Shown here one piece after another: positions 1 through 15,637 of a DNA stretch of 15,637 nucleotides. Origin of the DNA: a virus (taxonomy: Duplodnaviria > Heunggongvirae > Uroviricota > Caudoviricetes); IMG/VR virus record IMGVR_UViG_2600255005_000006; one strand, written 5' to 3'. Position 1 is the stretch's first letter, and every line of letters starts with the position of its first letter. Both the position numbers and the translations under genes were made by a program. The notes under the pieces were generated by a model. That model worked only from the letters and a program-made list of their open reading frames with translations, searched no databases and was not told the DNA's origin.

Positions 1-579
1 TTACAACGATTTGGCCGCCGGACCGTGATAACCGCACTCATCGCCGCGATAGGTCCAGGTGCAGGTGTTGGCCAGCATGATACGTCCCGGAAAAACAGCG
101 CCGTCCGTTTCCGTCGACGTGGCCAGTACAAAGGAGGCACTGACCGCGCTCAGTTCGCTGCACTGCTCGATGCGCCAGTGGCTGATCACCTCCTGCTCCG
201 GATCGGCGTCGCTGTTTCCGTTGACGAAGTTCACCGCATCCAGAAAACGGGCGTAAACCTTACGCCTGACCACCGTTCCGCCGACCAGACTCTGCAGGTC
301 TTCCGCCATCCCGGTGACCATGCCGTGCAGGTTAGAAACCGTCAGTGTCGGACGGGCAGCACTGCCCTTGCCGTTCAGTTCAAATCCCGTCCCCTGAATG
401 GGATATGCCTGATACTGCCGCCCCTGCCAGGTAACCGGCTCACCTCTTTCATTCTGCTCATTGCAGAAAAAGTAGCGATCCCCGCCTACCTCTGTCAGGT
501 CGATTTCCCAGAGCACCACGCTGGCCGACTGCTCCGCCCGAATGCATTCATTCAGTGTTTCCTGTTGTATGTCCTGCAT
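1..579 (-). CDS. Minor tail protein L (lambda gpL-like), 192 aa, C-terminally short and divergent
   Basis: Translation MQDIQQETLNECIRAEQSASVVLWEIDLTEVGG... is near-identical to lambda gpL as I recall it, up to ...TWTYRGDECGY, then ends HGPAAKSL with a stop at nt 1-3. ATG at 577-579. Confidence 0.85.
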   Translation of the reverse strand: MQDIQQETLNECIRAEQSASVVLWEIDLTEVGGDRYFFCNEQNERGEPVTWQGRQYQAYPIQGTGFELNGKGSAARPTLTVSNLHGMVTGMAEDLQSLVGGTVVRRKVYARFLDAVNFVNGNSDADPEQEVISHWRIEQCSELSAVSASFVLATSTETDGAVFPGRIMLANTCTWTYRGDECGYHGPAAKSL

Positions 580-583
580 CAGA

Positions 584-916
584 TCACCACTTCGTCAAAC
601 TGACACGAAAAATCGGTATAGGTGATATGTTCTGTCGCTGACCACGTTCGACACACCACTCTGATTTTTCTGTTAATACCCGGCGGGCGCCAAAAAAAGA
701 TTTATAGCCTTCATGCCGGGCTAAAAATTTTTCAAATGAATCACGTTCATTCGCCTCAACTTTGAAATCACAGGTAAAAACGCGCAGAGAATGATTAAGT
801 CCATTTGGACTTCGTTGCTCATAACCATCGCCAAGTCTTACAATTTTTATCGATGGTTTATTTTCTGTTTTCATTCCATCCTCTGGTAACCAGTGAAATT
901 CTTCCGTATTAGCCAC
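584..916 (-). CDS. Minor tail protein M (Phage_min_tail family, distant lambda gpM homolog)
   Basis: 110 aa; motif [16 protein letters not shown]...[14 protein letters not shown] aligns with lambda gpM VRFGDGYSQRAPAGLN...LESFLEEHGGWKSF. GTG start at 914-916 overlaps the tape measure stop; SD GGGGGA 8 nt upstream. Confidence 0.8.
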
Positions 917-3900
917 TTAACATTCCCCCATCACGTCGCATATTTAACAGAGTGCCCTGCACCCGCTGATCAACCATCCCCATAAGTGCTTTTATTGCCT
1001 GAGGGCCAACCTCTCCATTCTGGCCGTCATTTTGAATAGTGATTTGGTATACAGGGGCATAGGTAATATCTCCGCCTCCATTACCACTTTTACTATTAAT
1101 AGCTCTGACACCAAGAGAACCATCGGAAGTTCGTGTTAATGGCATAATGGCTTCCGGTCCAGCCTCACCAAAAACACCCGCCCCTTTTGCAAAAGCAAAA
1201 AATTGCGGGGAATCATAAATACCGTTCGAATACGTGCTCAATGACGGAGACTCATAAACACCGCCCTTTGCATTCGGAATAAATTTACTAATAGCACTCC
1301 CGATAGTTCCTAAAATCCCCCCAGAAGAACTGTTACTAATGCTGTCGAAAATCCCAGTAATTGAAGCCTTTAATGCTATTCGACTAAGATCCGAAATCAC
1401 GGAAGTAGCGAAAGAACGAAAATTTGCCTTGCCTGTCGTGACAAAATCACCCAGCGCATCGGTCATCCCATCAAACATCTGAGTCGTGGTTGATTTTATC
1501 TGCTCACTGATATCCTTAGTGTCATCCAGCCAGTTATTGAATCCCTGGGAGGCACCACTAACCCAGTCTCCTGCCTGAATATCGACCTGCTCGTTTTTCT
1601 GTCTGACAATTTCTTTTTCTCGTTCCAGAGCATCATTCAGAGCCTGCATTTTCTCCTGAAAAACATGATCTGACATTCCACGGGATTTATCTGCATAGTC
1701 ACGTTCAAGTTGCAGACGCTGGTTGTTATATTCACGTTCAATCCGCAGTAATTCCTGCTGACGTTGCTGATTTTTATCGCCAAGCCCATAACCAGCAATC
1801 TGAATATCATACCCCTGCTGACGATTATCAATCGAAGCCTGCAATGAATCACGCCATGCGGCTATTTCGGTTGATTCCTTGATTAGCCTGTTATTTTTTT
1901 CAATCGCAACATTTTTCTCCATCAACGCGGTTATTTCTTCCCGGTGTAAGAGAAGCGATTTCTGATCCTGGGTTAATTTCGATGACGGTCGTGACTCCAG
2001 GTCGGCAATCTGCTGACGCCACTTAACCAGTTCCTGTTCAGAGGAACTTAATTTAACGGTCAATTCAGCTTGTGAACTTAGTAACGCATTCTGTTGATTC
2101 AGATGATCAATCATTCGTTGGGCAGCATCATCCGAATAACCTTTCGCCTTTGGTAGCTTTGGATCTTTATAACGCTCATTTATTTGAGCGACAAGATTAT
2201 TATATTCTTCCTTTGAATACTGACTCTTTAGCTTTTCCAGTTTTGCAAGTTCACTGGCTCTCTGCTGCTCCCGGGTCTGATATTGTTTTGAAAAGGCATC
2301 TGCTTTCTGTCTGAGTTCAATTCCTTCCTGTTGTCGCTTGTTGTAATCGGTTATTGATGAATTTAGTACGTCCTGAGCAATTTTTTCTGCTTGAAGTACG
2401 CCCAATTGCTGCTTTAATCGTGCCAGCCTTTTATTTTGAGCGCCGCCATCCCCAATGCCACCTAACCCGAAAGCTCCGGGTCGGGTATTTTTTTCTATTT
2501 CATCAATTTGATGGAGAACATCTGAGATTTTTTGATCAAGGGAGGCATCACGACCAATATCCAGCATGGAATCCCATGCCCATTTTGCGGACTCAGCGAC
2601 AGCTTTCCATGCAGTCTCAAGATAACCAAGATTTTCTTTAATCTGGTTGGTGCGCTGGATCATTGAGGATGAGTATGCTTCTGTCGCAATGCGGGCGGCC
2701 TCCTGCTGGTTCCCTTCATCCTGTAGCGCCTTAATCTGGTTATAAGTCGCAATTGTCAGAAAATGGTACTGATCATTAAGTTTTGATATGGCACTGACAG
2801 GATCCTTTGCAATTTCATTGAAGTCATTAACCAGTTGTTCGGTTGATATTCCTGTTACTTCGCTCGTTTTTACTATCGCTGTCGTCACTTGCTCCAGCGA
2901 ACTGCTCGCTACCTTTCCCGAACGCACAAGCTGGTTTAATACTGCCGCCGCAGCGCCAGTTGTCGAATCAGCCGCATTCCCGGCACGTTGAGCTATATCG
3001 GCCAATTGCCCGCTGGTTGTCCCCAACTGATTTCCGGTAAGAATAAGAGATTTATTAAATTCGTCCTGCTCCTGAGAGCCTTTATAGTAAGCCAGCCCTA
3101 AGACGCCAACGGCTGCTGCGGCCAGGGTAAAAGGATTAATTAATCCCAGCACATAAGAACCAACACCTTTGATCGCCGGGCCAATCCCACCGAACATATC
3201 TTTTAGCTGGCCGCCCTGCTGCATTAACACCATAAAAGGCGACTGACCAGTGGACAACCCAACAACAATATCCGTCATTTGTGCAGGCAACATGCGCATA
3301 GCAAAAGCCGTTTGTTTTGCCGACATTCCGGTTTTGCTTAATTGAGATTGAGTAACCTCAAGCTCACTCCGCATAGCACGAAGTTTTCCAGAAAGTTCCT
3401 CATACATTTCAGGAGAGAGCATCCCCTTAGCTTTTGCTTCATTGAGCTGTTTCTGTTGTTCTACCAGACGATTAAAAGCAGTTCCGACAGGGTCAAGTTG
3501 AGCAATCAGACGTTGCAAAGCAGCAACCTGTTCATCATGCGCTTTTGCTGCTTCTCGCTCTGCCTGAGCCTCTCCGGTAAGCTCTCGCCGTGTTTCCTGT
3601 ATTTTTCGGCTATAATTCTCAAACTGAGAACCATTTATTTTCCCGGATGCAAACGCAGCATTAAGTTCATCCTGCTGTTGTTCAAGATTTCTTAGCGCCG
3701 CAACCAGAGGGTCGATCTTGTCCAGCATTCTTTGAAAGGCCTGAGCCTGCGATTCCTGCTGGGCGGCAGCAAGTTTTCCGGCCTTCTCGGCTTCTCTCTG
3801 CGCTTGCGCAACCCCGCTCAATTCCTCTGTGGTTTCATTAAGTTTACGGACAAGAAATTCATATTCTTCTTTATCAATAAGCCCTTTATCGAAAAATTTC

Positions 3901-4142
3901 TTTAATTCAGAATAGCGTCGACCGACAGTATCAATTGCGGCACCAACTGGATCAATAGCTGCTTTTAATTTTGCGAGCGCGTTCTTCTCATCTTCTGTTG
4001 CCTTAGTCACTTTCCCTGCGCTATTTGCAGCAGTTTCCCCGGCCTGCGTCATTTTGACTAATGAGGAGGTCAGATTGTCAGCATTATTTTTTGCTCCAGT
4101 GCTATCAATAATTATTGCGAGACGCGAGGTTTGCTCTGCCAT
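909..4142 (-). CDS. Tail tape measure protein (gpH-like), 1077 aa
   Basis: Very long ORF between chaperone and M genes; coiled-coil-rich N-terminal half, hydrophobic glycine-rich central segment, C-terminal region typical of tape measure proteins. ATG at 4140-4142 with SD GGAG 9 nt upstream. Confidence 0.9.
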
Positions 4143-4165
4143 TTATTAAAACTCCAGACAACAAA

Positions 4166-4185
4166 AAGCCCACCGAAGTGGGTTT
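4166..4185 (-). terminator. Terminator-like hairpin (CCCAC-UUCG-GUGGG followed by CUUUUUGUUGU) just upstream of the tape measure start
   Basis: Read on the minus strand in the 128-bp gap between the T-like ORF and the tape measure gene; short GC stem, UUCG tetraloop, U-run. Confidence 0.3.
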
Positions 4186-4270
4186 CAGGCGACATAATAG
4201 TAGATATAGCGATTACGAGGCCACGCAATGCTTTTCTCCAGGAGCATCATCGATTTAATTAAAGACACCA

Positions 4271-4540
4271 TCACATCTCTGTAACAGAGTGTACGTAATT
4301 AACAACTACACACACTGCTCCTGAAAATAACTGGTCATCCAGTGCAAAGATCACTGCTTCAAACTCATCGCGCTCAATCAATACCGGATGAGTGGCTAAA
4401 TATTCATTTATCTCTGTCAGAGATATAGGCAAAGGCACCCCGGTCATTCCAGCATAACGTCGGGCACGGGATATTACCGAATAGGCGTACAACAATTCCT
4501 TAAGCACCGGGTCTATTTCTGGTTCCGGTATCGGTGGCAA
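4271..4540 (-). CDS. gpT-like tail assembly chaperone extension segment; no credible own start, in frame with the G-like ORF behind its TAG stop
   Basis: The ORF-track start is TTG with no SD. The frame stays open from the G stop (4613-4615) to 4271 (113 sense codons). Position between chaperone and tape measure matches the G/GT arrangement. Confidence 0.45.
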   Translation of the reverse strand: MPPIPEPEIDPVLKELLYAYSVISRARRYAGMTGVPLPISLTEINEYLATHPVLIERDEFEAVIFALDDQLFSGAVCVVVNYVHSVTEM

Positions 4541-4612
4541 CCTGAGTTTTTCTCGCTTCCATCTTGCCTTTTCCCCCTTTCTCCCCGAACTCCGATAACC
4601 ACCGCTGGGCGG

Positions 4613-4627
4613 CTATGGCTTTTTTAT
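4613..4627 (-). promoter_or_regulatory. Putative -1 programmed frameshift signal: slippery heptamer A_AAA_AAG (4625-4619) two codons before the TAG stop, followed after 6 nt by a stem-loop (4612-4599)
   Basis: Zero-frame reads AUA AAA AAG CCA UAG; downstream CCGCC-CAGC-GGUGG can form a 5-bp hairpin. The heptamer is the same as the one I recall at the E. coli dnaX frameshift site. Confidence 0.4.
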
Positions 4628-5074
4628 CGTATCCTGCTTCTGCAGCTCTTTACCCTGGGCGATGCTGGCTGCTTCTGCAAGGATCTGCCAGTACAACTCT
4701 GGATTCTGCTTAAGCAGCGCGATCCCTCGTTCTGGCGTATATTCCAGTGCAACCTCAGCACCATTAACCAGTTCACCAACCCCTTTCCAGTCTTTCAGCA
4801 GATAACGAGCAGCATTATCAATGAGTAAATCATCAACAGAATCTACCTCGGAAACCTTTGAAATATCAAACTCCTTCGTTCCGACGTGCAAACTGGCATC
4901 CATTTTCTCAATGTGACGACGGATTAATGCATTACGGGAGCGATACTGATCGTTATCGCTGCTTGCCACCAACAGTTTTAACCCGTCTACAGGTTTTAAG
5001 TCCTTCATTGGCGTAAACCAGCGTTCTCCACCGATGATAATTTTCTGATTAAGAATAAACATCCATAACCTCAT
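4613..5074 (-). CDS. Tail assembly chaperone (gpG-like by position), 153 aa
   Basis: ORF immediately downstream of the major tail gene and upstream of the tape measure gene; ends in a slippery heptamer. ATG 5072-5074 has SD AGGGGG 8 nt upstream; alternative ATG at 5060-5062 has SD GAGG. Confidence 0.7.
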   Translation of the reverse strand: MRLWMFILNQKIIIGGERWFTPMKDLKPVDGLKLLVASSDNDQYRSRNALIRRHIEKMDASLHVGTKEFDISKVSEVDSVDDLLIDNAARYLLKDWKGVGELVNGAEVALEYTPERGIALLKQNPELYWQILAEAASIAQGKELQKQDTIKKP

Positions 5075-5083
5075 TCAATGCGT

Positions 5084-5110
5084 CCCCCTGTAGTGCAGTA
5101 CCACAGGGGG
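5084..5110 (-). promoter_or_regulatory. Strong stem-loop (about 11 bp) between the major tail and G-like genes that sequesters the G-like gene SD
   Basis: Minus-strand RNA CCCCCUGUGG-UACUGCACU-ACAGGGGG; the 3' arm contains the AGGGGG SD for the ATG at 5074; no U-run follows. Confidence 0.35.
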
Positions 5111-5122
5111 AATAACGGAAAA

Positions 5123-6085
5123 TCAACTAATCGCATCAGCACTGGCTTTTGCGATCACGGCAGTCGGGGAGCATTTTTTTCTGGTTATCGTAGGTGCTTC
5201 ATCTGCTGCGGTAATGCTCAATTGAACCTGGATAATGTCAGTATTACCCCCATCAGGCCATTCACCTGACACCTGAACCTTCGGGAAACTGAAAGTGTAT
5301 GCCCCCTCTCCATTCGAAAGCGTGAAGCTGAACGGAACTGTTTCTCCAGTCAGTGTTTTACTCCAGATTTCCCACGCGGCTTTAGACCATGAAAGCGTCA
5401 CCGTACCGGACGGTGTAAAAGTAGTCGGAATATTTGCTCCTGCATAAGGCGAGCCAGTCCCGATACAACGCTGTGTCTGGAGTTTGTTATCGAACTGAAT
5501 ATCAAAACTGTCGATACAAAAACCGTTACCTCCGGCAACACCATTCAGGCTTACTGCTGAAACCTCCTTAAACGAATAGCGTAACTTTCCTGCACTATCC
5601 ACAGGTTCGCCTTTGATAAAATTCGTATCATCGGCCTTTGATTCCCAGCCCAGCCCGGCAAAGGTTACGGTCGCTGTAATATCGCCGTCGTTAGGGATCT
5701 GCATTTTCCATGAGCCAACCTGCGCTCCTCTGACGACAGAGGCAATTCCGACATCGGACGCATAGGTCGCCAGAGAAAATGTTATTCGCTCATTCCCCAT
5801 TGTCAGAGAATCGCCTGACCATTCCGCGCCGAAACAGGATGCAAGAAAATCATCATGTTGACCCCAGCGAAATTTGGTACCAACATCACCGCCGACATCC
5901 ACAGTGCCAGGCGTCGCCCCCTGAGCCATCCGGGAGCCACCAATCTCATTATTTTCGCCTTTATTCTGGGTGGGTTTTACTCCCCAGCTTGTGCGTTTTA
6001 ATAAACTCCAGTCACCACTTGCTGGCGTAGTGCCTGCAACTGTCTCCCGGATAAATGCCGAGATAACCTTTGCACCTGAACTCAC
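5123..6085 (-). CDS. Major tail (tube) protein, 320 aa
   Basis: Position between tail terminator and chaperone genes. GTG start at 6083-6085 with SD AGGAGG 5 nt upstream. Confidence 0.8.
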   Translation of the reverse strand: MSSGAKVISAFIRETVAGTTPASGDWSLLKRTSWGVKPTQNKGENNEIGGSRMAQGATPGTVDVGGDVGTKFRWGQHDDFLASCFGAEWSGDSLTMGNERITFSLATYASDVGIASVVRGAQVGSWKMQIPNDGDITATVTFAGLGWESKADDTNFIKGEPVDSAGKLRYSFKEVSAVSLNGVAGGNGFCIDSFDIQFDNKLQTQRCIGTGSPYAGANIPTTFTPSGTVTLSWSKAAWEIWSKTLTGETVPFSFTLSNGEGAYTFSFPKVQVSGEWPDGGNTDIIQVQLSITAADEAPTITRKKCSPTAVIAKASADAIS

Positions 6086-6111
6086 AGGAGCCTCCTATGT
6101 CATTAATTGCG

Positions 6112-6504
6112 CTAGAGCGCGCGATATGGAATTTGAAGATTAAGCTGGAACCAGCCATTCTTTTCGCCGACGGCTATTGAGGAAACAGCCTGGTAACTGA
6201 GACGATCGTCATCCTGAAACTCAAACAGTTCCCGCAATTTATCGGCTGTCTCAGTAATGAGTTTTGAACCAGAACCTGCGGGGACAAATAACTGAATAAT
6301 GATTATCCCCGTGCGATAAACAACCGGCCCCGCGCCAATTTCATTAACTCCAGCCTGCCCGGGAATATTACTTAACCGCGCCCAGATTAACTTACCGGAA
6401 GGATCGAACGTTGGCGCGTTCGGATACAATACGTCTTTTCCATCAATAATCGTCTGTGCCGTCATTCTGGAAATAACCGTATTTCTGATTTCAGTAAACG
6501 TCAT
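6112..6504 (-). CDS. Tail terminator / tail completion protein (gpU-like by position), 130 aa
   Basis: Small ORF directly upstream of the major tail gene; its ATG overlaps the previous stop (ATGA). Confidence 0.55.
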   Translation of the reverse strand: MTFTEIRNTVISRMTAQTIIDGKDVLYPNAPTFDPSGKLIWARLSNIPGQAGVNEIGAGPVVYRTGIIIIQLFVPAGSGSKLITETADKLRELFEFQDDDRLSYQAVSSIAVGEKNGWFQLNLQIPYRAL

Positions 6505-6881
6505 TTGTAAGCCTGTAAAACACCATGAAAAGCGTTGGCATACACGCCAGTTGGCGCTTGTTGTGAATGACCGTTTTCAAGAGCCTCTGCATAAGGAAGG
6601 TTATTCTGGATATAAATAACTCCGTAATTTGCAGCTTTCGAAATAACCCCGATCCCACGCTGAACAGCAATCGTACCGTTCGGATCCACGTTATCAGATA
6701 TACCAAAATCGGGATGCTGTAACGACACCAGGTTGTTATTTCTGAAACGTCCGGTATCAACCGGAGCAGCAATATCAATAGCAGTAAGAATCTGAATAGC
6801 GATGTAGCGAATCTTCAGCCCTACATCTTCCTCAATCATCCCGGCAAATATTGACGGTTCTATATCCCATGCCTTTGCCAT
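6501..6881 (-). CDS. Neck protein (HK97 gp10-like by position), 126 aa
   Basis: SD AAGGAG 7 nt upstream of the ATG; the previous gene's stop abuts the start. Family assignment is from memory and position, not a search. Confidence 0.55.
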   Translation of the reverse strand: MAKAWDIEPSIFAGMIEEDVGLKIRYIAIQILTAIDIAAPVDTGRFRNNNLVSLQHPDFGISDNVDPNGTIAVQRGIGVISKAANYGVIYIQNNLPYAEALENGHSQQAPTGVYANAFHGVLQAYK

Positions 6882-7265
6882 TTACGCTCTCCTTAACTGG
6901 ATAGAGTAAACTGATGCGGAAGGATCTACACTTGCTGTAATTACCTCGTATCGTTGTAACTGCCTTGATACAGGATCATAAATCTCAATAATATGGTCGA
7001 CAGCTGGTTTATCCGTAACCTCGCATACCAGAGCGGTTAATTTAAGGTCACCATGCAAAATATTAATCCCATCAATTCTGCCCAGCTTATAACGTGTCAA
7101 CACGCCTCGCCCGGTATAGATTTCGGTGGATTCGCCGCCAGTTTCCGTCACAGGATCCCAGTGCCGGTGCGTAACGTAAGAACCAGAAAAATCACTCACG
7201 GCGTCCGCTAAATCCTCATCAAAAGCAGCGGCAACCTCTGACTGAATCTCTTCACGAAGCCCCAT
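6882..7265 (-). CDS. Head-tail joining / head closure protein (by position), 127 aa
   Basis: ATG overlaps the preceding TAA (TAATG); G-rich SD. Function inferred from synteny only. Confidence 0.5.
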   Translation of the reverse strand: MGLREEIQSEVAAAFDEDLADAVSDFSGSYVTHRHWDPVTETGGESTEIYTGRGVLTRYKLGRIDGINILHGDLKLTALVCEVTDKPAVDHIIEIYDPVSRQLQRYEVITASVDPSASVYSIQLRRA

Positions 7266-7660
7266 TATCCCCCCCTCACAACCCTGACTTGTGAGCGACT
7301 AAGTCCGTACGGTTTCAGCAGTGCTATCGCAAGCTGTAAATCGGGTTCAAGCAATGCAGTGCTGTTTGCTGGCAACTCAGAAAATGATTTCGATACACTG
7401 ACCCCGTCAGCCGACACGGCTTTACTGATAACAACGCCAGAATCATTTTTCTGCTGAAACAACTTACCGAATGAGGCAATTCTGGCTGCATATGCTCCCG
7501 CAAGTTTTACCTCTTCCGGAATACGGGATGGGTTAATTTTCAGGTTGAAGCCATTAAGCCAGGCATTAGCCATTAAAACAGCTTTATTTTTAGCGTTCTC
7601 ACTCGTCCAGGCGTTCCCAAACGCATTATCAACGTCATCACAGGTCACGTAAGTGATCAT
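7265..7660 (-). CDS. Head-tail connector / head completion protein (by position), 131 aa
   Basis: ATG at 7658-7660 with SD AGGAG 8 nt upstream. Function inferred from synteny only. Confidence 0.5.
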   Translation of the reverse strand: MITYVTCDDVDNAFGNAWTSENAKNKAVLMANAWLNGFNLKINPSRIPEEVKLAGAYAARIASFGKLFQQKNDSGVVISKAVSADGVSVSKSFSELPANSTALLEPDLQLAIALLKPYGLSRSQVRVVRGG

Positions 7661-7663
7661 GTG

Positions 7664-7840
7664 TTACTCCTGAGTTTTCCAGCCCATAGCCTTCCAGTTG
7701 TCAACTTCATCAGGATGAACATTAGCGATAGTTGGTGCGCCGGGAAACATCTGATAATCGGTCACCATAACCACTAACTCAATTTGCGTTTTTTGTGCGG
7801 CTTCACGCTGTGCTCTTTGCTCTTTAGTTAATCCGGCCAT
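7664..7840 (-). CDS. Small hypothetical phage protein, 58 aa (absent from the ORF track)
   Basis: Hand translation MAGLTKEQRAQREAAQKTQIELVVMVTDYQMFPGAPTIANVHPDEVDNWKAMGWKTQE; ATG at 7838-7840 preceded by a G6 SD; its TAA overlaps the SD of the next gene; fills the capsid-connector gap. Confidence 0.4.
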   Translation of the reverse strand: MAGLTKEQRAQREAAQKTQIELVVMVTDYQMFPGAPTIANVHPDEVDNWKAMGWKTQE

Positions 7841-7857
7841 ATGCCCCCCATTAAAAA

Positions 7858-7876
7858 TGGGGCCGAAGCCCCGTTT
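7858..7876 (-). terminator. Intrinsic terminator-like hairpin 10 nt after the major capsid stop (GGGGC-UUCG-GCCCC followed by AUUUUUAAU)
   Basis: Read on the minus strand; likely a partial terminator raising capsid relative to downstream expression. Confidence 0.4.
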
Positions 7877-7882
7877 GAATGT

Positions 7883-9022
7883 TTAACCAAGAATCAGACA
7901 ACCATGTGCCGGCTTCACTGATGAAACACCCCATGCCAGTCCAACTTCATAGCGCACCTGGCGATACTGACGATACAGTGCAATCTGGAACGTAATCCCT
8001 GAAATCGGGTCCGTAACATTCATTACATCATCAGCATTATCGCCACCTTCCGGCATTGCCGGAGTACGGGATGCCAGCAGAAACGCGTTGCGATCAAACG
8101 CCATATTTGCAGTAAAGGAGCCAACAACTGTGATTGCAGTATCATCGGCCAGATCCTGACGCAGTCCGGGCGCTGCAAGAGTAATCAGATTGCTGGTCGC
8201 TGCTGCCACAACATACTGATTCGGATCGCCAGCGAACGTAACAATCTGACCTGCAGAAATACTCCCCGAACCAGTATCAATGGAAATAAGAACATCGCCT
8301 TCTTTTTTCTCGCCATTCACGAGATAACCAGTTGCAGCAACCTTTGGCGCTCGTTTTACACCTGCCGAACTGTGAATATTGAATCCCTCCAGACGCCCCA
8401 ACACGCCCTCACGCAGTAGCTGTTCAGTGCCGGATTCATTCACTTTAAACAGTACAGACTGTTTTCCGCGCAAATTAGCAATGGCAGTGGAGCCAAGCAC
8501 CATCTGCAGATCGGTTGTCGGTGCGCCGTTATCCTCCAGAACCTGACGAGCCAGAGCAGCATCAGAAAGATCATCTTTAACACCAAACGGCGTTGTCCCT
8601 GCGGTTCCCACGGCGCGGGAAGCACCGAAATACAACGCACCAAGATCAGCCTCAACCTCGTTTGCAAGGGCGCGAAAAGCCTGCTTGAACTGATCAGCCA
8701 GAATGGTGTTGTAAGTCCCTGAAGGGCCAAGAGCCAGTTGTTCTTCACCATTCCATTTAACCGGTGCCATTTTGGATTTAGTAATTTTCACATCAACAGT
8801 GCCAATATTTTGATCACCGGTATTCGGAGCTGACGGCCCCGGTACGATATCTTCGGTTTTCGCCTCAGGCGCAACTGGCGCGGTTACCGTCTGATCTTTT
8901 GCTGCGGCGTCAGCTTTTGCGTTTTTTGCTACCGCAGGGATAAAACCTACCTGCTCACGGGATACAATATCCAGGGCGGTATAAATAGTCGGGATCAACC
9001 CGGTCAGGGTATTTCCAGCCAT
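7883..9022 (-). CDS. Major capsid (coat) protein, 379 aa
   Basis: Large ORF downstream of the scaffold-like gene and upstream of the neck genes; ATG at 9020-9022 with SD AAGGA; followed by a terminator hairpin. Confidence 0.85.
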   Translation of the reverse strand: MAGNTLTGLIPTIYTALDIVSREQVGFIPAVAKNAKADAAAKDQTVTAPVAPEAKTEDIVPGPSAPNTGDQNIGTVDVKITKSKMAPVKWNGEEQLALGPSGTYNTILADQFKQAFRALANEVEADLGALYFGASRAVGTAGTTPFGVKDDLSDAALARQVLEDNGAPTTDLQMVLGSTAIANLRGKQSVLFKVNESGTEQLLREGVLGRLEGFNIHSSAGVKRAPKVAATGYLVNGEKKEGDVLISIDTGSGSISAGQIVTFAGDPNQYVVAAATSNLITLAAPGLRQDLADDTAITVVGSFTANMAFDRNAFLLASRTPAMPEGGDNADDVMNVTDPISGITFQIALYRQYRQVRYEVGLAWGVSSVKPAHGCLILG

Positions 9023-9121
9023 AATTAAATATTCCTTAAAAATTTGCGTAATTAGTGAATAGATGGAGTAATGAGCTATCCAGCCCTGACACCAGCTCCC
9101 ATCCGGAAGCTGACAAATGTG

Positions 9122-9886
9122 TTAATCAACAATTGTGATACCGTCTTTCAATGCGTTTTGCTTACCTGCAACATCCAGTGCATCAAAAGCAGAGCGTTTC
9201 ATCGTTTTCTGACCAACATCATGCTGTGTCGGACGGGAGCCGCCGCCATTGTTGCCACTGGCTTTCAGGATGTAGTCTTTCTGAGGGTAATTTTCGACGA
9301 GGAACTCCAGCACCTCATCAAACTGCGCCAGTTCGCCAGGCTTCGCGCGGGAATAAATTTTGTTGCCGGAAGCGTCATAAGCAACGATCTTCCCTTCTTC
9401 CACTTTGAATGCCTGCCCGAAGCGGGCTTGTAATAAATCTGCCGGGATCGCAATTTTATCGGCAATATATTTTGAACCCGCAAAACTACCGCCAATCATA
9501 GAATCGTAAAGCTGCGTCTCCAGCATCTGAGAGCGTTGCTTTTCTTCATCTAATTGCTGCTGAAAATTTTTCGTAATTTCTGCCTTAACCTGGTCAACCT
9601 GTCCCGCATCGATCAGCTTTTTCTGGTCGATTTTTGACAGCATTTCCAGTGCCTCGATCGCCTTCTTCGGGTCTTCGATAGCGGCAAACTTAGCCAGTTT
9701 TTCCTCTGCAGCTTCTTTAGCCAGGCGATGATTTTTTGCCTCGCCATTAAGCTCTGTAATTTTTTTTATCGCCAGCGGTGCATCGAAGCCGATTTCTTTA
9801 CCATCGTCGTGCACATAAACTGGCAGGCCAGCAGTATCAATTTCTGCGTATTGTTTTCCGTTAATCTCGACCGTTTTCAGTTTCAT
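9122..9886 (-). CDS. Putative capsid scaffolding protein, 254 aa (start MKLKTVEINGK)
   Basis: Acidic, helix-rich ORF between the MuF-like and capsid genes. The ORF-track GTG extension to 9958 is rejected because it runs through the upstream terminator hairpin. Confidence 0.5.
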   Translation of the reverse strand: MKLKTVEINGKQYAEIDTAGLPVYVHDDGKEIGFDAPLAIKKITELNGEAKNHRLAKEAAEEKLAKFAAIEDPKKAIEALEMLSKIDQKKLIDAGQVDQVKAEITKNFQQQLDEEKQRSQMLETQLYDSMIGGSFAGSKYIADKIAIPADLLQARFGQAFKVEEGKIVAYDASGNKIYSRAKPGELAQFDEVLEFLVENYPQKDYILKASGNNGGGSRPTQHDVGQKTMKRSAFDALDVAGKQNALKDGITIVD

Positions 9887-9940
9887 ATTAGTACCTGGTT
9901 TAAGTCTTCCGACAGTTACGCTGCTCACCATCCGGATCGC

Positions 9941-9970
9941 AGCAATAAAAAAGGCCACCCGAAGGTAGCC
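9941..9970 (-). terminator. Intrinsic terminator between the MuF-like and scaffold genes (GGCUACC-UUCG-GGUGGCC followed by UUUUUUAUU)
   Basis: 7-bp GC-rich stem with one mismatch, UUCG tetraloop, U6 run, read on the minus strand. Confidence 0.5.
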
Positions 9971-9990
9971 TGTTGTAATAAATGATTTAT

Positions 9991-11017
9991 TTAAATCCCT
10001 GCTTTTCTGAATACCTGTGCATCACGCTCACGGAGTTGCTTCAGCGTCAGCCATTCGCCTTTATCGGTGTAAAATTCATCTGGCGACATACCGCCATCCC
10101 GAATCAGCTTTGCCCGGGTTTCCCCCACAATCTGTTTTTGTCTGGTGTAAGGCTGACGCAAAAACCATTCCCTGTAGGTTGTATCTCCGGCCACCACGCC
10201 ATCCATGCTGGCCCGCTCAGCCGGGGAAATATCACGAACATCAATACCCAGTTCCTTCGCTGATTTCAGAATGAACGTTTCCGTTGAGCGGCAGCAGAAA
10301 TGAATTTTTCCCGGCCCATGCAAATAAGGCACACTGTGACCTACAGGTTTATTATCCAGCGTATATTTGAGGCGATCCCTGATTCGACATTGTGGCGTAG
10401 TACGATTATCAAGCGTTGATAACCATTGCTTACCCTTAATCAAATCATTATTCGCGCTGGCAAAACTCTCACGGGCAGTAGCAGCAAGATGTCCAACCGC
10501 TGTTTTTGCAATGCTGGCCGCATTAGCCCGGCTCATCTGCAATGCACCATCCTGAAATCCCTTGCTGACATGTCCCCGAATTTTTCTTGCGATCTGCTCA
10601 TTGGTATCCCCCAGCAAAAAACCCTGACGCACCGTATTTGTTATGCGTCTGAGCCGATCCGCCTCAAGATCCAAGGCCCACTCACTGAGCAGTCGTCCCT
10701 GGAATGGTCGCGCCATTGCAGCGGCGTAAAGTGCATCAAGAAGATATACCAACCAGAGGGTGAACATCAGCAACAAAATCAGGTAGCAGAGAATCAAACA
10801 GACTTAACTGATAACCAGCCTCATAAATTGCCAGCTCGTTCAGCTCTCCGGAGAGACTGGTAAACATGCTGTTAATAGCAGCGCGGTTAACCTCTCTGAC
10901 ACTCGCCAGAAGTGACTCCAGGCGCGTAACGGTAAAACTACCAGGATCGAGGCTGTCCAGTGCTACCAGCAGGCGAGCTGTAAGCTCCGCATCGCTGTCA
11001 TTCAGTATTTTCACCAT
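9991..11017 (-). pseudogene. Head morphogenesis protein, Phage_Mu_F / SPP1 gp7 family, split by a +1 frameshift into an N-terminal ORF (10736..11017, 93 aa) and a C-terminal ORF (9991..10797)
   Basis: The C-terminal part carries a MuF-like motif WLSTLDNRTTPQCRIRDRLKYTL...HFCCRS. The N-terminal ORF has ATG at 11015-11017 with SD GAGG. The frames overlap over 10736-10797; the in-frame ATG at 10714-10716 has no SD. Combined length about 335 aa fits the family. Confidence 0.65.
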
Positions 11018-12885
11018 TCTGGCAGCCTCGCCAGTTGCCTGAAGCGGTATGTGGTTTCCGTCGTCCTGGCCGTGCTGACCAGCCGCTCACTGCCGTCATC
11101 CGCTGCCACGGTCAGGCGAAGCATAAAGCTCCCCCCCTTCACCACCTTCGGCGTGTCCCAGCGCGCCAGCACCTGGTATTCCCCGCTGTCTGCGGTGACT
11201 TCTGCAGTCAGGTGCTGCACCGCGGGCGGCGTGACACCGTTCACCGTTCCGCTCTGGTCGCCGTCAAAGTACGCCCCGTTATCCACGATGGCTTCTTTCT
11301 CCGGTACATGCTGCACGGCAGTGATGGCATACGTGCCGTCATCGTTCTCACGGATACTCACACAGCGGAACAGGCGCTGGCGCAGCATCGGCAGCTTCAG
11401 CCCCCACACGCTGTATCCGGCAACGCCGTCAGGAACACGGCTCACTTTCACCTTCACACCGTCGGTGACGGACTGGACCTCCACGCTGACCGGATTCCCC
11501 TGCCCGTCAACCAGGCTTATCAGCGTGGTGCCGGAGGATGGCAGCGTGATTTCACGGTCGAGCGTCAGCGTCCGGGTCTGGCTGTTCACCGCCAGCACAC
11601 GCCCACCGATGCTGATACCGGCATAGTCATCATCGCAGATTTCAATGACATCCCCCGGTACATGGCGAAGCCCTTCAGCACCCACGCTGAAGTCCACGGT
11701 CTGCGTTTCCAGCAGCTCCGTTTTAATCAGCCACAGCCCGGCGCGGTGTGCCTGCCCCCGACTGGTACAGCCAAAGGCATCCATCTTCGTGACGTTACGG
11801 CCGTAACGGGCAATGGCCTGCGTATCCTCCACGAGCTCTGTCGCCGTCTCCCAGCCGTTGTTCGGGTCAATCCAGTTCACCTCAACGGCATTATGGCGGT
11901 CCTTCAGGGCGCTGAAGCTGTAGCGGAACGGCGCGCCATCATCCGGCATCACCACATTACTGCGGTTATAGGTCCACACCTTATCTGATGGTCGGTCCTG
12001 CACGAACGTCAGCGTCTGCCCGTTCCATACCGGCATACAGCGCATCGCCGAGCAGAAATCACTGAGCACATCCCACGCCTTGCGCTGTGTGGTCAGGTAC
12101 GCATTACAGGTGATGCGCGGCTCCGTGCCGCCAAAGCCGTCCGGCACTGACTGGTCGCAGTACTGGCCGATGACATACAGCGCCCATTTATCCACATCCG
12201 CCGCACCAAGACGTTTCCCCATGCCGTAGCGCGGATGGGTCAGCATATCCCACAGACACCAGGCCATGTTGTTGCTGTATGCCGGTTTAAACGTTCCGTC
12301 CCAGATACCGCTGTATTGCCGCGTCTGCGGGTTATAATTCGACGGCACCTGCAGAATACGCCCGCGCAGATGATAATTACGGCTCACCTGCTGACTGCCG
12401 AACTGCTCCGAGTCCACCTGCACGCCGACCAGTGCCGTGTTCGGGTAGCACTGTTTCACATCGATAATTTCGGTGTATGACGACCAGAGCGTTTTGTTCT
12501 GCAGCTGGTCTGTGGTGCTGTCCGGCGTCATCCTGCGCATCCGGATACTGAACGGGCGCGGCGGCAGGTTATCCACCACCACCGAGGCCAGATACTGTGA
12601 AGTGGTTTTACCCTTAATGGTGATGTCTTTTTCCGTCACCCAGCCACCGTTACGTTGTATCTGAACCAGCAGGCGGACTTCCGATGGATTCCTGTCCCCC
12701 TTTGAGGTGGTTTCCACCAGTGCCTGCACGCCGAAAGTAAAACGCAGACGGTCAATGTTTGCCGACGTGATGGTCCGGGTGATCGGCGTGTCATATTTCA
12801 CTTCTGTACCGAGCACCGTCTCGGAGCCGGAGGATTCAAATCCCTCCGGCGGTGTCTGCTCCTGCTCACCGGCCCGGAACACCAC
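11011..12885 (-). pseudogene. Internal fragment of lambda-like host specificity protein J (roughly lambda residues 55-690); lacks its N-terminus and C-terminal receptor-binding region
   Basis: Translation VVFRAGEQEQTPPEGFESSGSETVLGTEVKYDTPITRT... is near-identical to lambda gpJ as I recall it. Homology runs upstream to about 12927 (SEGNTNISGVT) and ends at about 11025 (RFRQLA, then RLPEW-stop versus lambda LGNYRL). Confidence 0.9.
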
Positions 12886-12929
12886 CGTGACGCCGGATAT
12901 ATTGGTATTCCCCTCACTGCCCGATAGGG

Positions 12930-13340
12930 TTGGCGGGTGGGCTAAACTTATACCAATACGCGCCGAATCCGCTGGGGTGGATTGACCCGTTAGGACTTAA
13001 ATGCTGGAGTTCGGCCAGACGTGATTACTGGAAAGCAGAAGCTAAAGCAGCGCCAAAAGGCATGTATTCATCCGTGAATATGTTAAGAATGCGTTTTGGT
13101 CTTGCTCCAAGAATTCGAGTTAAAGAATTCCATTTTAAAACAGGTACAGAAAGAATAAGAAACGTATCGCTAGAACTAAACCATCGTCATTGGCCTCAAC
13201 GCGATGGTAAGCATGTTGATATTCCATATAACCTTGAGAAAGTGACGCCCTGGGAACATGCAGCTAAAGATCCCTATAGACATCCAGGTAGTACGTTACT
13301 TGAAATACTACAAGACATTGGAAACTATAAGGGGTTTTAA
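12930..13340 (+). CDS. Orphan Rhs C-terminal toxin tip: Rhs core-end motif (PIGLAGGLNLYQYAPNPLGWIDPLGL) followed by an HNH/colicin-DNase-like domain of about 110 aa; no bona fide start codon
   Basis: Rhs PxxxxDPxGL boundary motif at 12921-12998. Downstream ELNHRHWPQRDGKHVDIPYNLEKVTPWEH resembles the colicin E9 HNH motif [28 protein letters not shown]. In-frame stop at 12888-12890; AT-rich codon usage. Confidence 0.65.
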   Translation: MAGGLNLYQYAPNPLGWIDPLGLKCWSSARRDYWKAEAKAAPKGMYSSVNMLRMRFGLAPRIRVKEFHFKTGTERIRNVSLELNHRHWPQRDGKHVDIPYNLEKVTPWEHAAKDPYRHPGSTLLEILQDIGNYKGF

Positions 13341-13341
13341 A

Positions 13342-13722
13342 ATGAGACTGGCTGAATTTATGCAATCTGATATTTATGTTGATTTTCTTAATGACTTGGA
13401 TAAGTCTCTTTCAGAAAAGATAGATAGAAAATCAAAGGTTTATGATGTTGTTGTTAACCTTATGGAAAAATGGTTGGAATATGCCTCGATGTCTTTTGAT
13501 GATTTGCATTGGGTTATATCAAATTGCAGGTCAGATTCAATAAGTTACATTGTAAAAAAACAAGTTACTTATACAGAGGCTAATGGTGGGAAAGATAATA
13601 TCATCAATCAAGCGCCTAAGATAAACTTCCCTATTGGTCATCTGATAGAGTATTATTTATTATCGAAAAGACCGAACGATTTGCTTGATTATGTGAACAA
13701 AAATTCGGATTCCCGGTTCTAA
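13342..13722 (+). CDS. Putative cognate immunity protein, 126 aa
   Basis: ATG 1 nt after the toxin TAA with SD AAGGGG 7 nt upstream; very AT-rich; followed by a terminator. Function inferred from the toxin-immunity gene arrangement; no recognisable family. Confidence 0.55.
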   Translation: MRLAEFMQSDIYVDFLNDLDKSLSEKIDRKSKVYDVVVNLMEKWLEYASMSFDDLHWVISNCRSDSISYIVKKQVTYTEANGGKDNIINQAPKINFPIGHLIEYYLLSKRPNDLLDYVNKNSDSRF

Positions 13723-13782
13723 GAAATATGTAAAGGAAATTGGGAAAATATTTTCTGAAATAAAATATTCATAATTTAAATG

Positions 13783-13816
13783 GCCGGGGAGAAAATCAAA
13801 TCTCCCCGGCTTTTTT
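13783..13816 (+). terminator. Rho-independent terminator (CCGGGGAGA-AAAUCAAA-UCUCCCCGG followed by UUUUUUAUUU), shared by the convergent immunity and SymE-like genes
   Basis: 9-bp stem with U6 on the plus strand; the SymE-like stop codon (13819-13821) sits in the T-run; the minus-strand side is followed only by an A/U-rich tract. Confidence 0.6.
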
Positions 13817-13818
13817 AT

Positions 13819-14145
13819 TTAATTATCTTTCAGCACTTCCCACATCCCGCTTTTTATTCCCTTCACCACCCGTTTAACCTGATAAAGTTCCTCCCGCAGT
13901 TCCTGTACCTCGTCACTGTCAGCGATGATGGTCAGGCACCCCTCCGAAATCTTCACCGTCACACCCCGCCCGGTATCAAATCCGGCTTCTTTCAGCCAGT
14001 CGCCCTTGAGGTGCAGGCTGGGGTGTTGTGAATAATACCGGGCTATACCGGTTGTGCGGTCCTGGTGGCGGGCTCTGACATAGCCGACTTTATAGCGGCG
14101 CTGTGTTTTGGAAATGACGTCCGCATTACTGTCGTTCTGCGGCAT
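13819..14145 (-). CDS. SymE-family (type I toxin-antitoxin, AbrB-fold) toxin homolog, 108 aa
   Basis: LHLKGDWLKEAGFDTGRGVTVKISEGCLTIIA aligns with E. coli SymE [32 protein letters not shown] as I recall it. ATG at 14143-14145 chosen; the ORF-track extension to 14325 is antisense to the PTS gene and rejected. Confidence 0.7.
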   Translation of the reverse strand: MPQNDSNADVISKTQRRYKVGYVRARHQDRTTGIARYYSQHPSLHLKGDWLKEAGFDTGRGVTVKISEGCLTIIADSDEVQELREELYQVKRVVKGIKSGMWEVLKDN

Positions 14146-15637
14146 TATGTTAGGGATTGGTAGTTCCCTGAGTAGCCATGATGTCATCACCCTCATCCCG
14201 GCATTGGGTAACCCCGTGTTGCAGGCTATCTTTACCTGGATGAGTAAAATTGGCTCGTTCGCTTTTAGCTTCCTGCCGGTGATGTTCTGTATTGCGATCC
14301 CGCTTGGTCTGGCACGTGAAAACAAAGGCGTAGCGGCGTTCGCTGGTTTCGTAGGTTATGCGGTGATGAACCTGGCGGTTAACTTCTGGTTGACCAATAA
14401 AGGCATTCTGCCAACCACCGATGCAGCTGTTCTGAAAGCCAATAACATCCAGAGCATTCTTGGGATCCAGTCGATCGACACCGGGATCCTCGGTGCGGTG
14501 ATCGCCGGTATTATCGTCTGGATGCTGCATGAGCGTTTTCATAATATCCGCCTGCCGGATGCGCTGGCATTCTTCGGCGGTACGCGCTTCGTGCCAATTA
14601 TCTCCTCGCTGGTGATGGGGCTTGTCGGTCTGGTGATTCCGTTAGTCTGGCCGATTTTTGCCATGGGTATTAGCGGCTTAGGTCATATGATCAACAGCGC
14701 GGGTGATTTCGGACCTATGCTGTTTGGTACGGGTGAACGTCTGCTATTGCCGTTTGGTCTGCATCACATTCTGGTGGCATTAATTCGCTTTACTGACGCG
14801 GGCGGCACGCAGGAAGTCTGTGGACAAACCGTCAGCGGCGCACTCACCATCTTCCAGGCGCAATTAAGCTGCCCGACCACTCACGGTTTCTCTGAAAGCG
14901 CCACGCGTTTCCTCTCCCAGGGTAAAATGCCTGCGTTCCTCGGCGGTCTGCCAGGTGCTGCATTAGCCATGTATCACTGTGCTCGCCCGGAAAACCGTCA
15001 TAAAATTAAAGGCCTACTGATTTCTGGCCTGATCGCCTGTGTTGTTGGCGGCACCACCGAACCGCTGGAGTTCTTGTTCCTGTTCGTAGCGCCAGTTCTC
15101 TACGTCATCCACGCGCTGTTAACCGGCCTCGGCTTCACCGTCATGTCTGTGCTCGGTGTCACCATCGGTAATACCGACGGCAATATCATCGATTTTGTGG
15201 TGTTCGGTATTTTGCATGGCCTGTCGACTAAGTGGTACATGGTGCCAGTGGTGGCGGCAATCTGGTTTGTCGTTTACTACGTCATCTTCCGTTTCGCTAT
15301 CACCCGCTTCAATCTGAAAACACCGGGTCGCGACAGTGAAATCGCCAGCTCAATCGAAAAAGCCGTTACCGGTGCGCCGGGTAAATCGGGTTACAACGTT
15401 CCGGCAATCCTCGAAGCCTTAGGCGGTGCCGACAATATTGTCAGCCTGGATAACTGCATTACCCGTCTGCGTTTGTCAGTGAAAGATATGTCGCTTGTTA
15501 ATGTGCAGGCGCTAAAGGACAATCGGGCAATTGGCGTAGTACAACTTAATCAACATAACCTGCAGGTTGTTATCGGGCCGCAAGTTCAGTCAGTAAAAGA
15601 CGAAATGGCTGGTCTGATGCGTACTGTTCAGGCATAA
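14108..15637 (+). CDS. malX: PTS EIICB component, glucose/maltose family (malX-like), 5'-truncated by about 20 codons relative to canonical EIICB N-termini
   Basis: IIC domain then IIB domain with active-site motif NCITRLR; aligns along its length with E. coli PtsG but is longer (at least 509 aa versus 477), fitting MalX (about 530 aa). In-frame stop at 14093-14095; only TTG 14108 or ATG 14114 available as starts. Confidence 0.8.
   Translation: MEMTSALLSFCGIMLGIGSSLSSHDVITLIPALGNPVLQAIFTWMSKIGSFAFSFLPVMFCIAIPLGLARENKGVAAFAGFVGYAVMNLAVNFWLTNKGILPTTDAAVLKANNIQSILGIQSIDTGILGAVIAGIIVWMLHERFHNIRLPDALAFFGGTRFVPIISSLVMGLVGLVIPLVWPIFAMGISGLGHMINSAGDFGPMLFGTGERLLLPFGLHHILVALIRFTDAGGTQEVCGQTVSGALTIFQAQLSCPTTHGFSESATRFLSQGKMPAFLGGLPGAALAMYHCARPENRHKIKGLLISGLIACVVGGTTEPLEFLFLFVAPVLYVIHALLTGLGFTVMSVLGVTIGNTDGNIIDFVVFGILHGLSTKWYMVPVVAAIWFVVYYVIFRFAITRFNLKTPGRDSEIASSIEKAVTGAPGKSGYNVPAILEALGGADNIVSLDNCITRLRLSVKDMSLVNVQALKDNRAIGVVQLNQHNLQVVIGPQVQSVKDEMAGLMRTVQA

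Follow-up and report, generated by a model that had tools for sequence, protein, structure and literature searches.

The 15,637-nt stretch of DNA analysed here, recorded in IMG/VR as a virus of the class Caudoviricetes (IMGVR_UViG_2600255005_000006) and called the window throughout, begins with a gene for a lambda-like tail protein L that stops well before the length usual for this protein. The question raised by this locus is whether the short L is a natural form of the protein, the remnant of a gene broken in the bacterial chromosome, or a product of the way in which the source sequence was assembled. Here, we describe the short gene and its product, place it in its source record, locate the break at the level of single bases, and weigh the readings of its origin.

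The truncated L gene and its product

The L ORF runs from an ATG at 577-579 to a TAA at 1-3 and encodes 192 aa, whereas L in intact relatives has 699 nt and 232 aa; the window ORF is thus 40 residues shorter, as the initial annotation had estimated. Residues 1-188 are colinear with lambda gpL at high identity, and the Pfam family Phage_tail_L (PF05100) is matched with E = 2.5e-77, at model positions 1-161 of 206 only. The full-length form of about 232 aa includes a C-terminal iron-binding domain, and the last 44 residues of this domain are absent from the 192-aa ORF. The [4Fe-4S] ligands in lambda gpL are Cys173, Cys182, Cys205, and Cys212 (PMC10721106). Cys173 and Cys182 are kept in the short ORF, and Cys205, Cys208, and Cys212 are gone, leaving two of the four ligands; the early suspicion that the distal Fe-S cysteines would be missing is borne out for Cys205 and Cys212. 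In an exact look-up over 153 billion gene positions, the 192-aa protein occurred in a single record.

The genes upstream of L follow the order known from lambda, with the tape measure gene (H), M, and then L on the minus strand. Intact E. coli relatives continue after L with K (a C40 peptidase), I, J, lom, and a tail fibre gene, a one-strand H-M-L-K-I-J order that is broken in the source, where H, M, and the shortened L (L') are colinear, K and the start of I (I') lie on the opposite strand, and a J fragment sits 11 kb off, beyond the head genes on their far side. The initial annotation took it as probable that neither K, I, nor the rest of J follows L. K and the start of I are in fact present next to L, inverted and accompanied by the missing 134 nt of L; J is indeed out of place, and its fragment in the far part of the window had been overlooked. 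The frameshift in M moves the end of its ORF from 579 to 584 and gives it an unrelated tail; the shortened A run is probably a homopolymer sequencing error. The coordinates of these features are collected in Table 1.

Table 1. Features of the window that bear on the truncation of gene L (positions in the window; strand relative to the window as given).
Feature	Position	Strand	Remarks
Gene I nt 67-80 (codons 23-27, LQRFG)	1..14	+	Inverted relative to L; right end of the 859-bp block
Truncated L ORF	1..579	-	188 L codons, 1 hybrid codon, and 3 codons and stop from antisense gene I
L-derived DNA, L nt 1-565	15..579	-	Identical to L in the E. coli Yu5 and KK05-19 prophages
CCGCCG microhomology, 6 nt	15..20	.	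L nt 560-565 (reverse complement) and native gene I nt 81-86
Gene M (Phage_min_tail)	584..916	-	A7 at 692-698, A8 in relatives; frame shifted for the last ~37 codons
Tape measure gene, intact, 1077 aa	909..4142	-	Context for the H-M-L order
J fragment (codons ~55-683) fused to 5′ part of minor head gene	11011..12885	-	Join at 11030-11035

Several other features of the window were recorded alongside. The J-head fusion is a 624-aa ORF found in one record only by exact look-up. Its J fragment shares about 95% identity with J of Yu5 and flanks the head genes on the wrong side. The window has neither portal nor terminase genes, and its Phage_Mu_F minor head gene is broken by an indel at 10738 into ORFs of 258 and 93 aa. 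A YdaY-family ORF (PF27119) occupies 4613-5074, with two C-run length differences from Yu5 just downstream (4577-4582). Positions 12921-14115 hold a Rhs-tip-like ORF, a putative immunity ORF, and a SymE-family toxin gene; this segment shares 92% identity with a SymE/HTH/primase/XerC cassette that is repeated in a few E. coli strains, such as SCU-111, joins the J fragment at ~12918-12921, and stands in place of malI and the promoter region. Compared with E. coli, the first 78 nt (26 codons) are missing from malX itself (14108-15637).

Organization of the source record

The window was located in GCA_000208585.2, on record AEMF01000001.1 (4,463,584 bp), with window nt 1 at record position 4182689. 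This record is a gap-free 4.46-Mb contig from a 2011 short-read draft. AEMF00000000 corresponds to Escherichia sp. TW11588, a member of cryptic clade IV from Michigan soil (PMC7716201, Table A1). Since malX is only 93.7% identical to its E. coli counterpart and the flanking sequence matches E. ruysiae, the record is consistent with a clade IV source. Both window edges are gene boundaries (the right one being the malX stop codon), and the record continues for megabases, so that the left edge is no end of the sequence.

In the record, the region from ytfB to cpdB is followed by 814 nt of an autotransporter gene, an inverted block, 11 kb of head-tail genes, 1.9 kb of J, a 1.2-kb Rhs-tip/SymE cassette, and malX without its first 78 nt, downstream of which come malY, add, ydgJ, cnu, ydgK, and rsxABC. 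This arrangement contains six junctions in 17 kb, with pieces of 0.8-1.9 kb plus one of 11 kb. On the K-12 map, cpdB lies near 4.43 Mb and malX near 1.70 Mb. The record joins the cpdB and malX regions, both ascending, in an order that is non-syntenic with E. coli; no single inversion gives both regions in ascending order, and at least one nearby join is probably artificial. To the right of the window, rsxC (L007 18254-20345) is read as two ORFs of 258 and 421 aa, which fits a frameshift error in the record.

Position of the break and the inverted block

The break lies between nt 14 and 15, within the window. In every matching record, comprising more than 4300 from E. coli and 127 from phage, the match starts at window nt 15 or 17 and never at nt 1, and a base-by-base comparison of the left end with E. 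coli Yu5 gives the same sequence from nt 15 and unrelated sequence over nt 1-14. The rearrangement breakpoint proposed in the initial annotation is therefore real as a feature of the record, and its placement at or to the left of the window start has to be moved inward. The point of divergence in the protein shifts likewise: H185-G-P-A188, which had been taken as already foreign, is normal for this allele (Yu5 L reads ...CGYHGPAVADEY), the last L-encoded residue is Ala188, and the foreign part consists of A189-K-S-L192 and the stop. Window nt 1-14, TTACAACGATTTGG, equal gene I codons 23-27, and their antisense reading gives K-S-L-stop to the L ORF.

Sequence to the left of the window, where the initial annotation had advised looking, is rearranged, with an inverted I'-K-L3' block followed by a hairpin and an autotransporter remnant. 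The block measures 859 bp, lies inverted directly left of nt 15 (L004 10566-11424, record ~4181845-4182703), and has window nt 1-14 as its final bases. It contains I nt 1-80, K without its last ~23 nt, and the 3′ 134 nt of L, which places the missing end of L ~0.85 kb from the break in flipped orientation. In the deposited sequence, the gene is cut between L nt 565 and 566, with zero L bases lost or duplicated. When the block is flipped onto L nt 1-565, an uninterrupted 232-aa L results that has 100% protein identity to Yu5 L, contains all five cysteines, covers positions 1-206 of the PF05100 model, and gives a full-length alignment to lambda gpL in PDB 8IYK (E = 5.5e-150). Gene L is thus split, not deprived of its end, and the short L is no natural variant but the first 565 nt of an ordinary lambda-type gene, carried by a prophage that is dead and fragmented.

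The block is ~95% identical to Yu5, and K within it is unreadable, with at least seven small source-specific 1-nt indels in 859 nt that are absent from relatives. At one site of the inverted K (L004 10862-10876), the source has CTCGCGGATGAAAAT and relatives have (C/T)CGCGATGAAAAT; with its two extra bases, the K site matches the L nt 566 end of the block at 11411-11425 (ATATTCATCCGCGAG) at 93% in inverted orientation, a likeness that may be a coincidence or a consensus error.

The block is followed by the hairpin GCCGCCCGTATCGTGACGGGCGGC and then by the 3′-terminal 814 nt of an autotransporter gene of the chromosome. The E. ruysiae reference (NZ_CABVLQ010000001.1) reads ...AAAAAGAGT followed by GCCGCCCGTATCGTGACGGGCGGC after an intact 886-aa autotransporter; as the same hairpin is native to E. 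ruysiae, the chromosomal break falls exactly at the foot of the terminator stem. The autotransporter (MisL/AIDA-type, 886 aa; L004 11425-12368) is left with only its last 814 nt, from codon ~627, and the remnant joins the cpdB upstream region 41 nt from the expected start of cysQ, which is absent. In the E. ruysiae reference (L005 4015-7994), type I Zorya zorD and zorC stand beside the intact autotransporter and an RhtB-family exporter.

The junction sequence of L was found in none of 5426 complete E. coli genomes, nor in the GTDB species representatives, IMG/VR, or the JGI metagenomes, and no second assembly with either L junction or the J-head fusion was found in the collections searched. 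The same short L in related phages, named in the initial annotation as a finding that would refute its reading, is likewise absent from every phage and genome collection searched.

Short homologies at the junctions

Both ends of the inverted block carry short sequence shared with their partners beyond chance, at L/I as well as at L/hairpin, where the null for junction homology was taken from local chromosomal DNA. Junction a, between L nt 565 and antisense I, falls in the 6-nt CCGCCG; the native I allele concerned, ...GATTTACAACGATTTGGCCGCCG, is present in at least 120 viral contigs, and the chance of an overlap of at least 6 nt is 7.6e-4. Junction b, between antisense L nt 566 and the hairpin, has no exact overlap. 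Here, 14 nt of L (nt 552-565, TCACGGTCCGGCGG) match TCACGATACGGGCGGC, the reverse complement of the left half of the hairpin (GCCGCCCGTATCGTGA), at 12/16 with gaps. The anchored homeology score of 7.0 was tested against its own anchored-alignment null over 35,566 chromosomal positions and is reached at 0.34% of them (p = 3.4e-3).

A GC-rich motif, GCCGCC, is common to all three partners (L ...CCGGCGG, I ...GGCCGCCG, terminator stem GCCGCCCG). A crossover inside GGCGG/CCGCC predicts junctions that are off by one G/C from those observed, and an exact flip between the two imperfect inverted repeats reproduces both junctions, given an I/hairpin join of TTTGG to GCCGCCCG. A repeat search found no exact inverted repeat at the block ends, only the gapped 12/16 match. 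The junctions contain neither Ns nor linker. Elsewhere in the window, the junction of the minor head gene with J (11030-11035) has a 5-nt overlap, CCAGT.

Error profile and allele switch

Over window 15-11027, a base-by-base comparison with the Yu5 prophage gives 1 interior substitution (9312) and six 1-nt indels, at 691, 4329, 4577, 4582, 9054, and 10738, mostly in homopolymers. Such an indel-heavy difference points to pyrosequencing-type (454-type) errors and not to evolution. Indel density in the 859-bp block is ~15 times that of the adjoining 11 kb.

The two parts of L also differ in allele type. Up to L nt 564, the source is of the Yu5 type: nt 537 and 564 set it apart from both Ec104 and L044, and nt 553 sets it apart from L044 as well. 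At nt 588, 630, 633, and 642, it is of the Ec104 type against Yu5. The block starts 2 nt past the last SNP that parts the two allele types. If one gene had simply flipped, an allele switch at the break is a 24-nt coincidence; it is expected for a repeat contig shared with a second prophage and unexpected for a simple flip.

Origin of the split gene

Several readings of the short L can be set aside with the evidence above. A phage family that encodes a functional short L without distal cysteines would account for an open ORF with a proper stop, yet we regard this as very improbable, given that the final 14 nt are antisense gene I, that the junction occurs in 0 of the 127 phage and more than 4300 E. 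coli records and in none of the GTDB, IMG/VR, and JGI contigs, that the exact protein is known from one record only, that two of the four Fe-S ligands are missing, and that frameshifts affect the neighbouring genes M and K. In another reading, an insertion sequence truncated L, or a contig ended at a repeat, nt 1-14 being the tip of a mobile element. This is suggested by homology that stops abruptly 14 nt short of the window edge; we reject it, considering its chance negligible, as the record runs on for megabases, the 14 nt and the next 845 nt align to I-K-L sequence, and there is no transposase among the called genes within 10 kb on either side. A programmed invertible segment of the Gin/Cin/Pin/Hin type that switches tail genes has in its favour that the block is inverted with no L base lost or gained. 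No invertase was found among the called genes that have Pfam hits and lie within 10 kb to the left or right, the block ends have no ~26-bp inverted crossover sites but only the gapped 12/16 match, the inversion cuts the coding sequence of L and K instead of swapping fibre C-termini, and neither orientation is conserved in any relative; such a switch seems to us extremely unlikely.

The choice that matters lies between a rearrangement in the cell and an error of assembly. Because the homologies at the junctions exceed chance, a real microhomology-mediated rearrangement is favoured, and, going by the junction sequences, we lean towards an illegitimate, microhomology-guided event in vivo, which would fit the patchwork of the locus, with a second window junction (minor head/J) that has a 5-nt overlap and other fragments that are also remnant-like. 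Under a real flip, two things go unexplained, the coincidence of the allele switch (about 1-3%) and the excess of errors. The low quality of the draft makes an assembly artefact a serious alternative, to which we assign a substantial but less than even chance: the 859-bp block may be a small repeat contig common to another lambdoid prophage in the same genome, misoriented or abutted, in which case the real genome would have either an intact L (L-K-I' beside the hairpin) or the block elsewhere. In line with this are a gap-free contig of 4.46 Mb from a 2011 short-read draft, the six indels against one substitution in 11 kb relative to a near-identical prophage, a ~15-fold indel density in the block that is the pattern of a poorly assembled repeat, the split rsxC, the non-syntenic cpdB-malX connection, the six junctions in 17 kb, the loss of 78 nt of malX and of cysQ, and the absence of both junctions from every independent assembly among the collections searched. 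A block that begins 2 nt after the last allele-type SNP is what a repeat boundary would give, and the exact abutment of L nt 565 and 566 is natural for neighbouring contigs. Against an artefact, blind concatenation predicts neither the CCGCCG overlap (~8e-4) nor the hairpin homeology (~3e-3), the homologies are far too short to mislead an assembler, and no Ns or linker mark the joins. If only the orientation of the block is wrong, a single coincidence (p ~3e-3) remains, because similarity between L and the hairpin implies similarity between L and I, provided that the I/hairpin join was itself microhomology-mediated. Greedy merging of contigs by tiny overlaps was also considered and is out, as junction b and the autotransporter/cpdB junction have 0-1 nt of exact overlap.

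Proposed course of the rearrangement

For the favoured reading, a rearrangement in the cell, a two-step course can be proposed. The prophage would already have been deleted from I codon ~27 (nt 80) to the foot of the terminator, giving a precursor join of ...CGATTTGG to GCCGCCCG..., predicted as ...CAACGATTTGG(G)CCGCCCGTATCGTGA. The segment would then flip between the imperfect inverted repeats formed by L nt 552-565 (TCACGGTCCGGCGG) and the hairpin (GCCGCCCGTATCGTGA). By an alternative path, a replication template switch between two co-resident prophages would lead to the same arrangement and, in addition, account for the allele switch; such a two-prophage event would remove the coincidence that a simple flip, by contrast, leaves in place. 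A further possibility, which we consider improbable, is one complex replication-based template switch that used the three GCCGCC sites (in L, I, and the terminator stem) and two co-resident prophages. As a single event, it would explain both the allele change exactly at the break and the base-exact abutment of the L halves, and, if true, would offer, in a wild Escherichia from soil, a natural bacterial case of prophage scrambling of a chromothripsis-like or MMBIR-like kind.

Relation to known prophages and recombination events

Lambda gpL (PDB 8IYK, 8IYL, 8K35; PF05100) resembles the window L in residues 1-188 and in its position after M and the tape measure gene. Unlike lambda gpL, the window L stops at 192 aa and is followed by a K and an I that are inverted and damaged. 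The closest relatives belong to intact prophages: that of E. coli Yu5 (NZ_CP200247) is near-identical over window 15-11027, from the minor head gene to L nt 565, and that of KK05-19 (NZ_CM144239), compared by database search only, is 99.9% identical over window 15-1200 and 99.2% over the whole match. Both keep the L 3′ end, K, I, J, lom, and the tail fibre gene in normal order, with portal and terminase upstream, whereas none of these is in place in the window. The 11 kb of prophage sequence is essentially identical between the Michigan soil clade IV strain and Yu5 from Moscow, likely errors aside, and KK05-19 derives from a human-stool E. coli in Germany, with the 99.2-99.9% match from the database search. 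Taken at the level of sequence identity, the likeness of prophages across Michigan, Moscow, and Germany implies what would be a very recent cross-species transfer.

The cryptic prophages of E. coli K-12 (Rac, Qin, e14, and others) are lambdoid and have been cut by deletions and rearrangements to dead gene fragments. The decay seen here is of the same kind, to which a small inversion splitting L is added, as recorded in one draft. As in Rac, the YdaY homologue of the window lies between the tail tube and tape measure genes. Microhomology-mediated inversions and MMBIR-type template switching form a known class of illegitimate recombination, and the present junctions resemble such events in their GC-rich microhomologies of 5-6 nt and in a short, imperfect inverted repeat, part of which is a hairpin stem; here, by comparison, the mechanism is read from the junction sequences, and one junction is one base off the simplest model.

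Implications for prophage decay and the L protein

The short L is a product of ordinary prophage decay or of assembly error, and no new kind of L protein. Since the short protein is a fusion product of the break and not an evolved form, nothing new on gpL or its Fe-S cluster follows from it. With L' lacking two of the four Fe-S ligands, K and M unreadable, and I and J unusable, we infer that no tail tip can be formed. Truncated genes in old draft pseudo-molecules such as AEMF01000001.1 need read-level support before they are given a biological reading. If the rearrangement is real, the locus would represent one more case of prophage inactivation, in which a small inversion at GC-rich microhomology split an essential tail-tip gene, and would be a reminder that a terminator stem can serve as a recombination partner.
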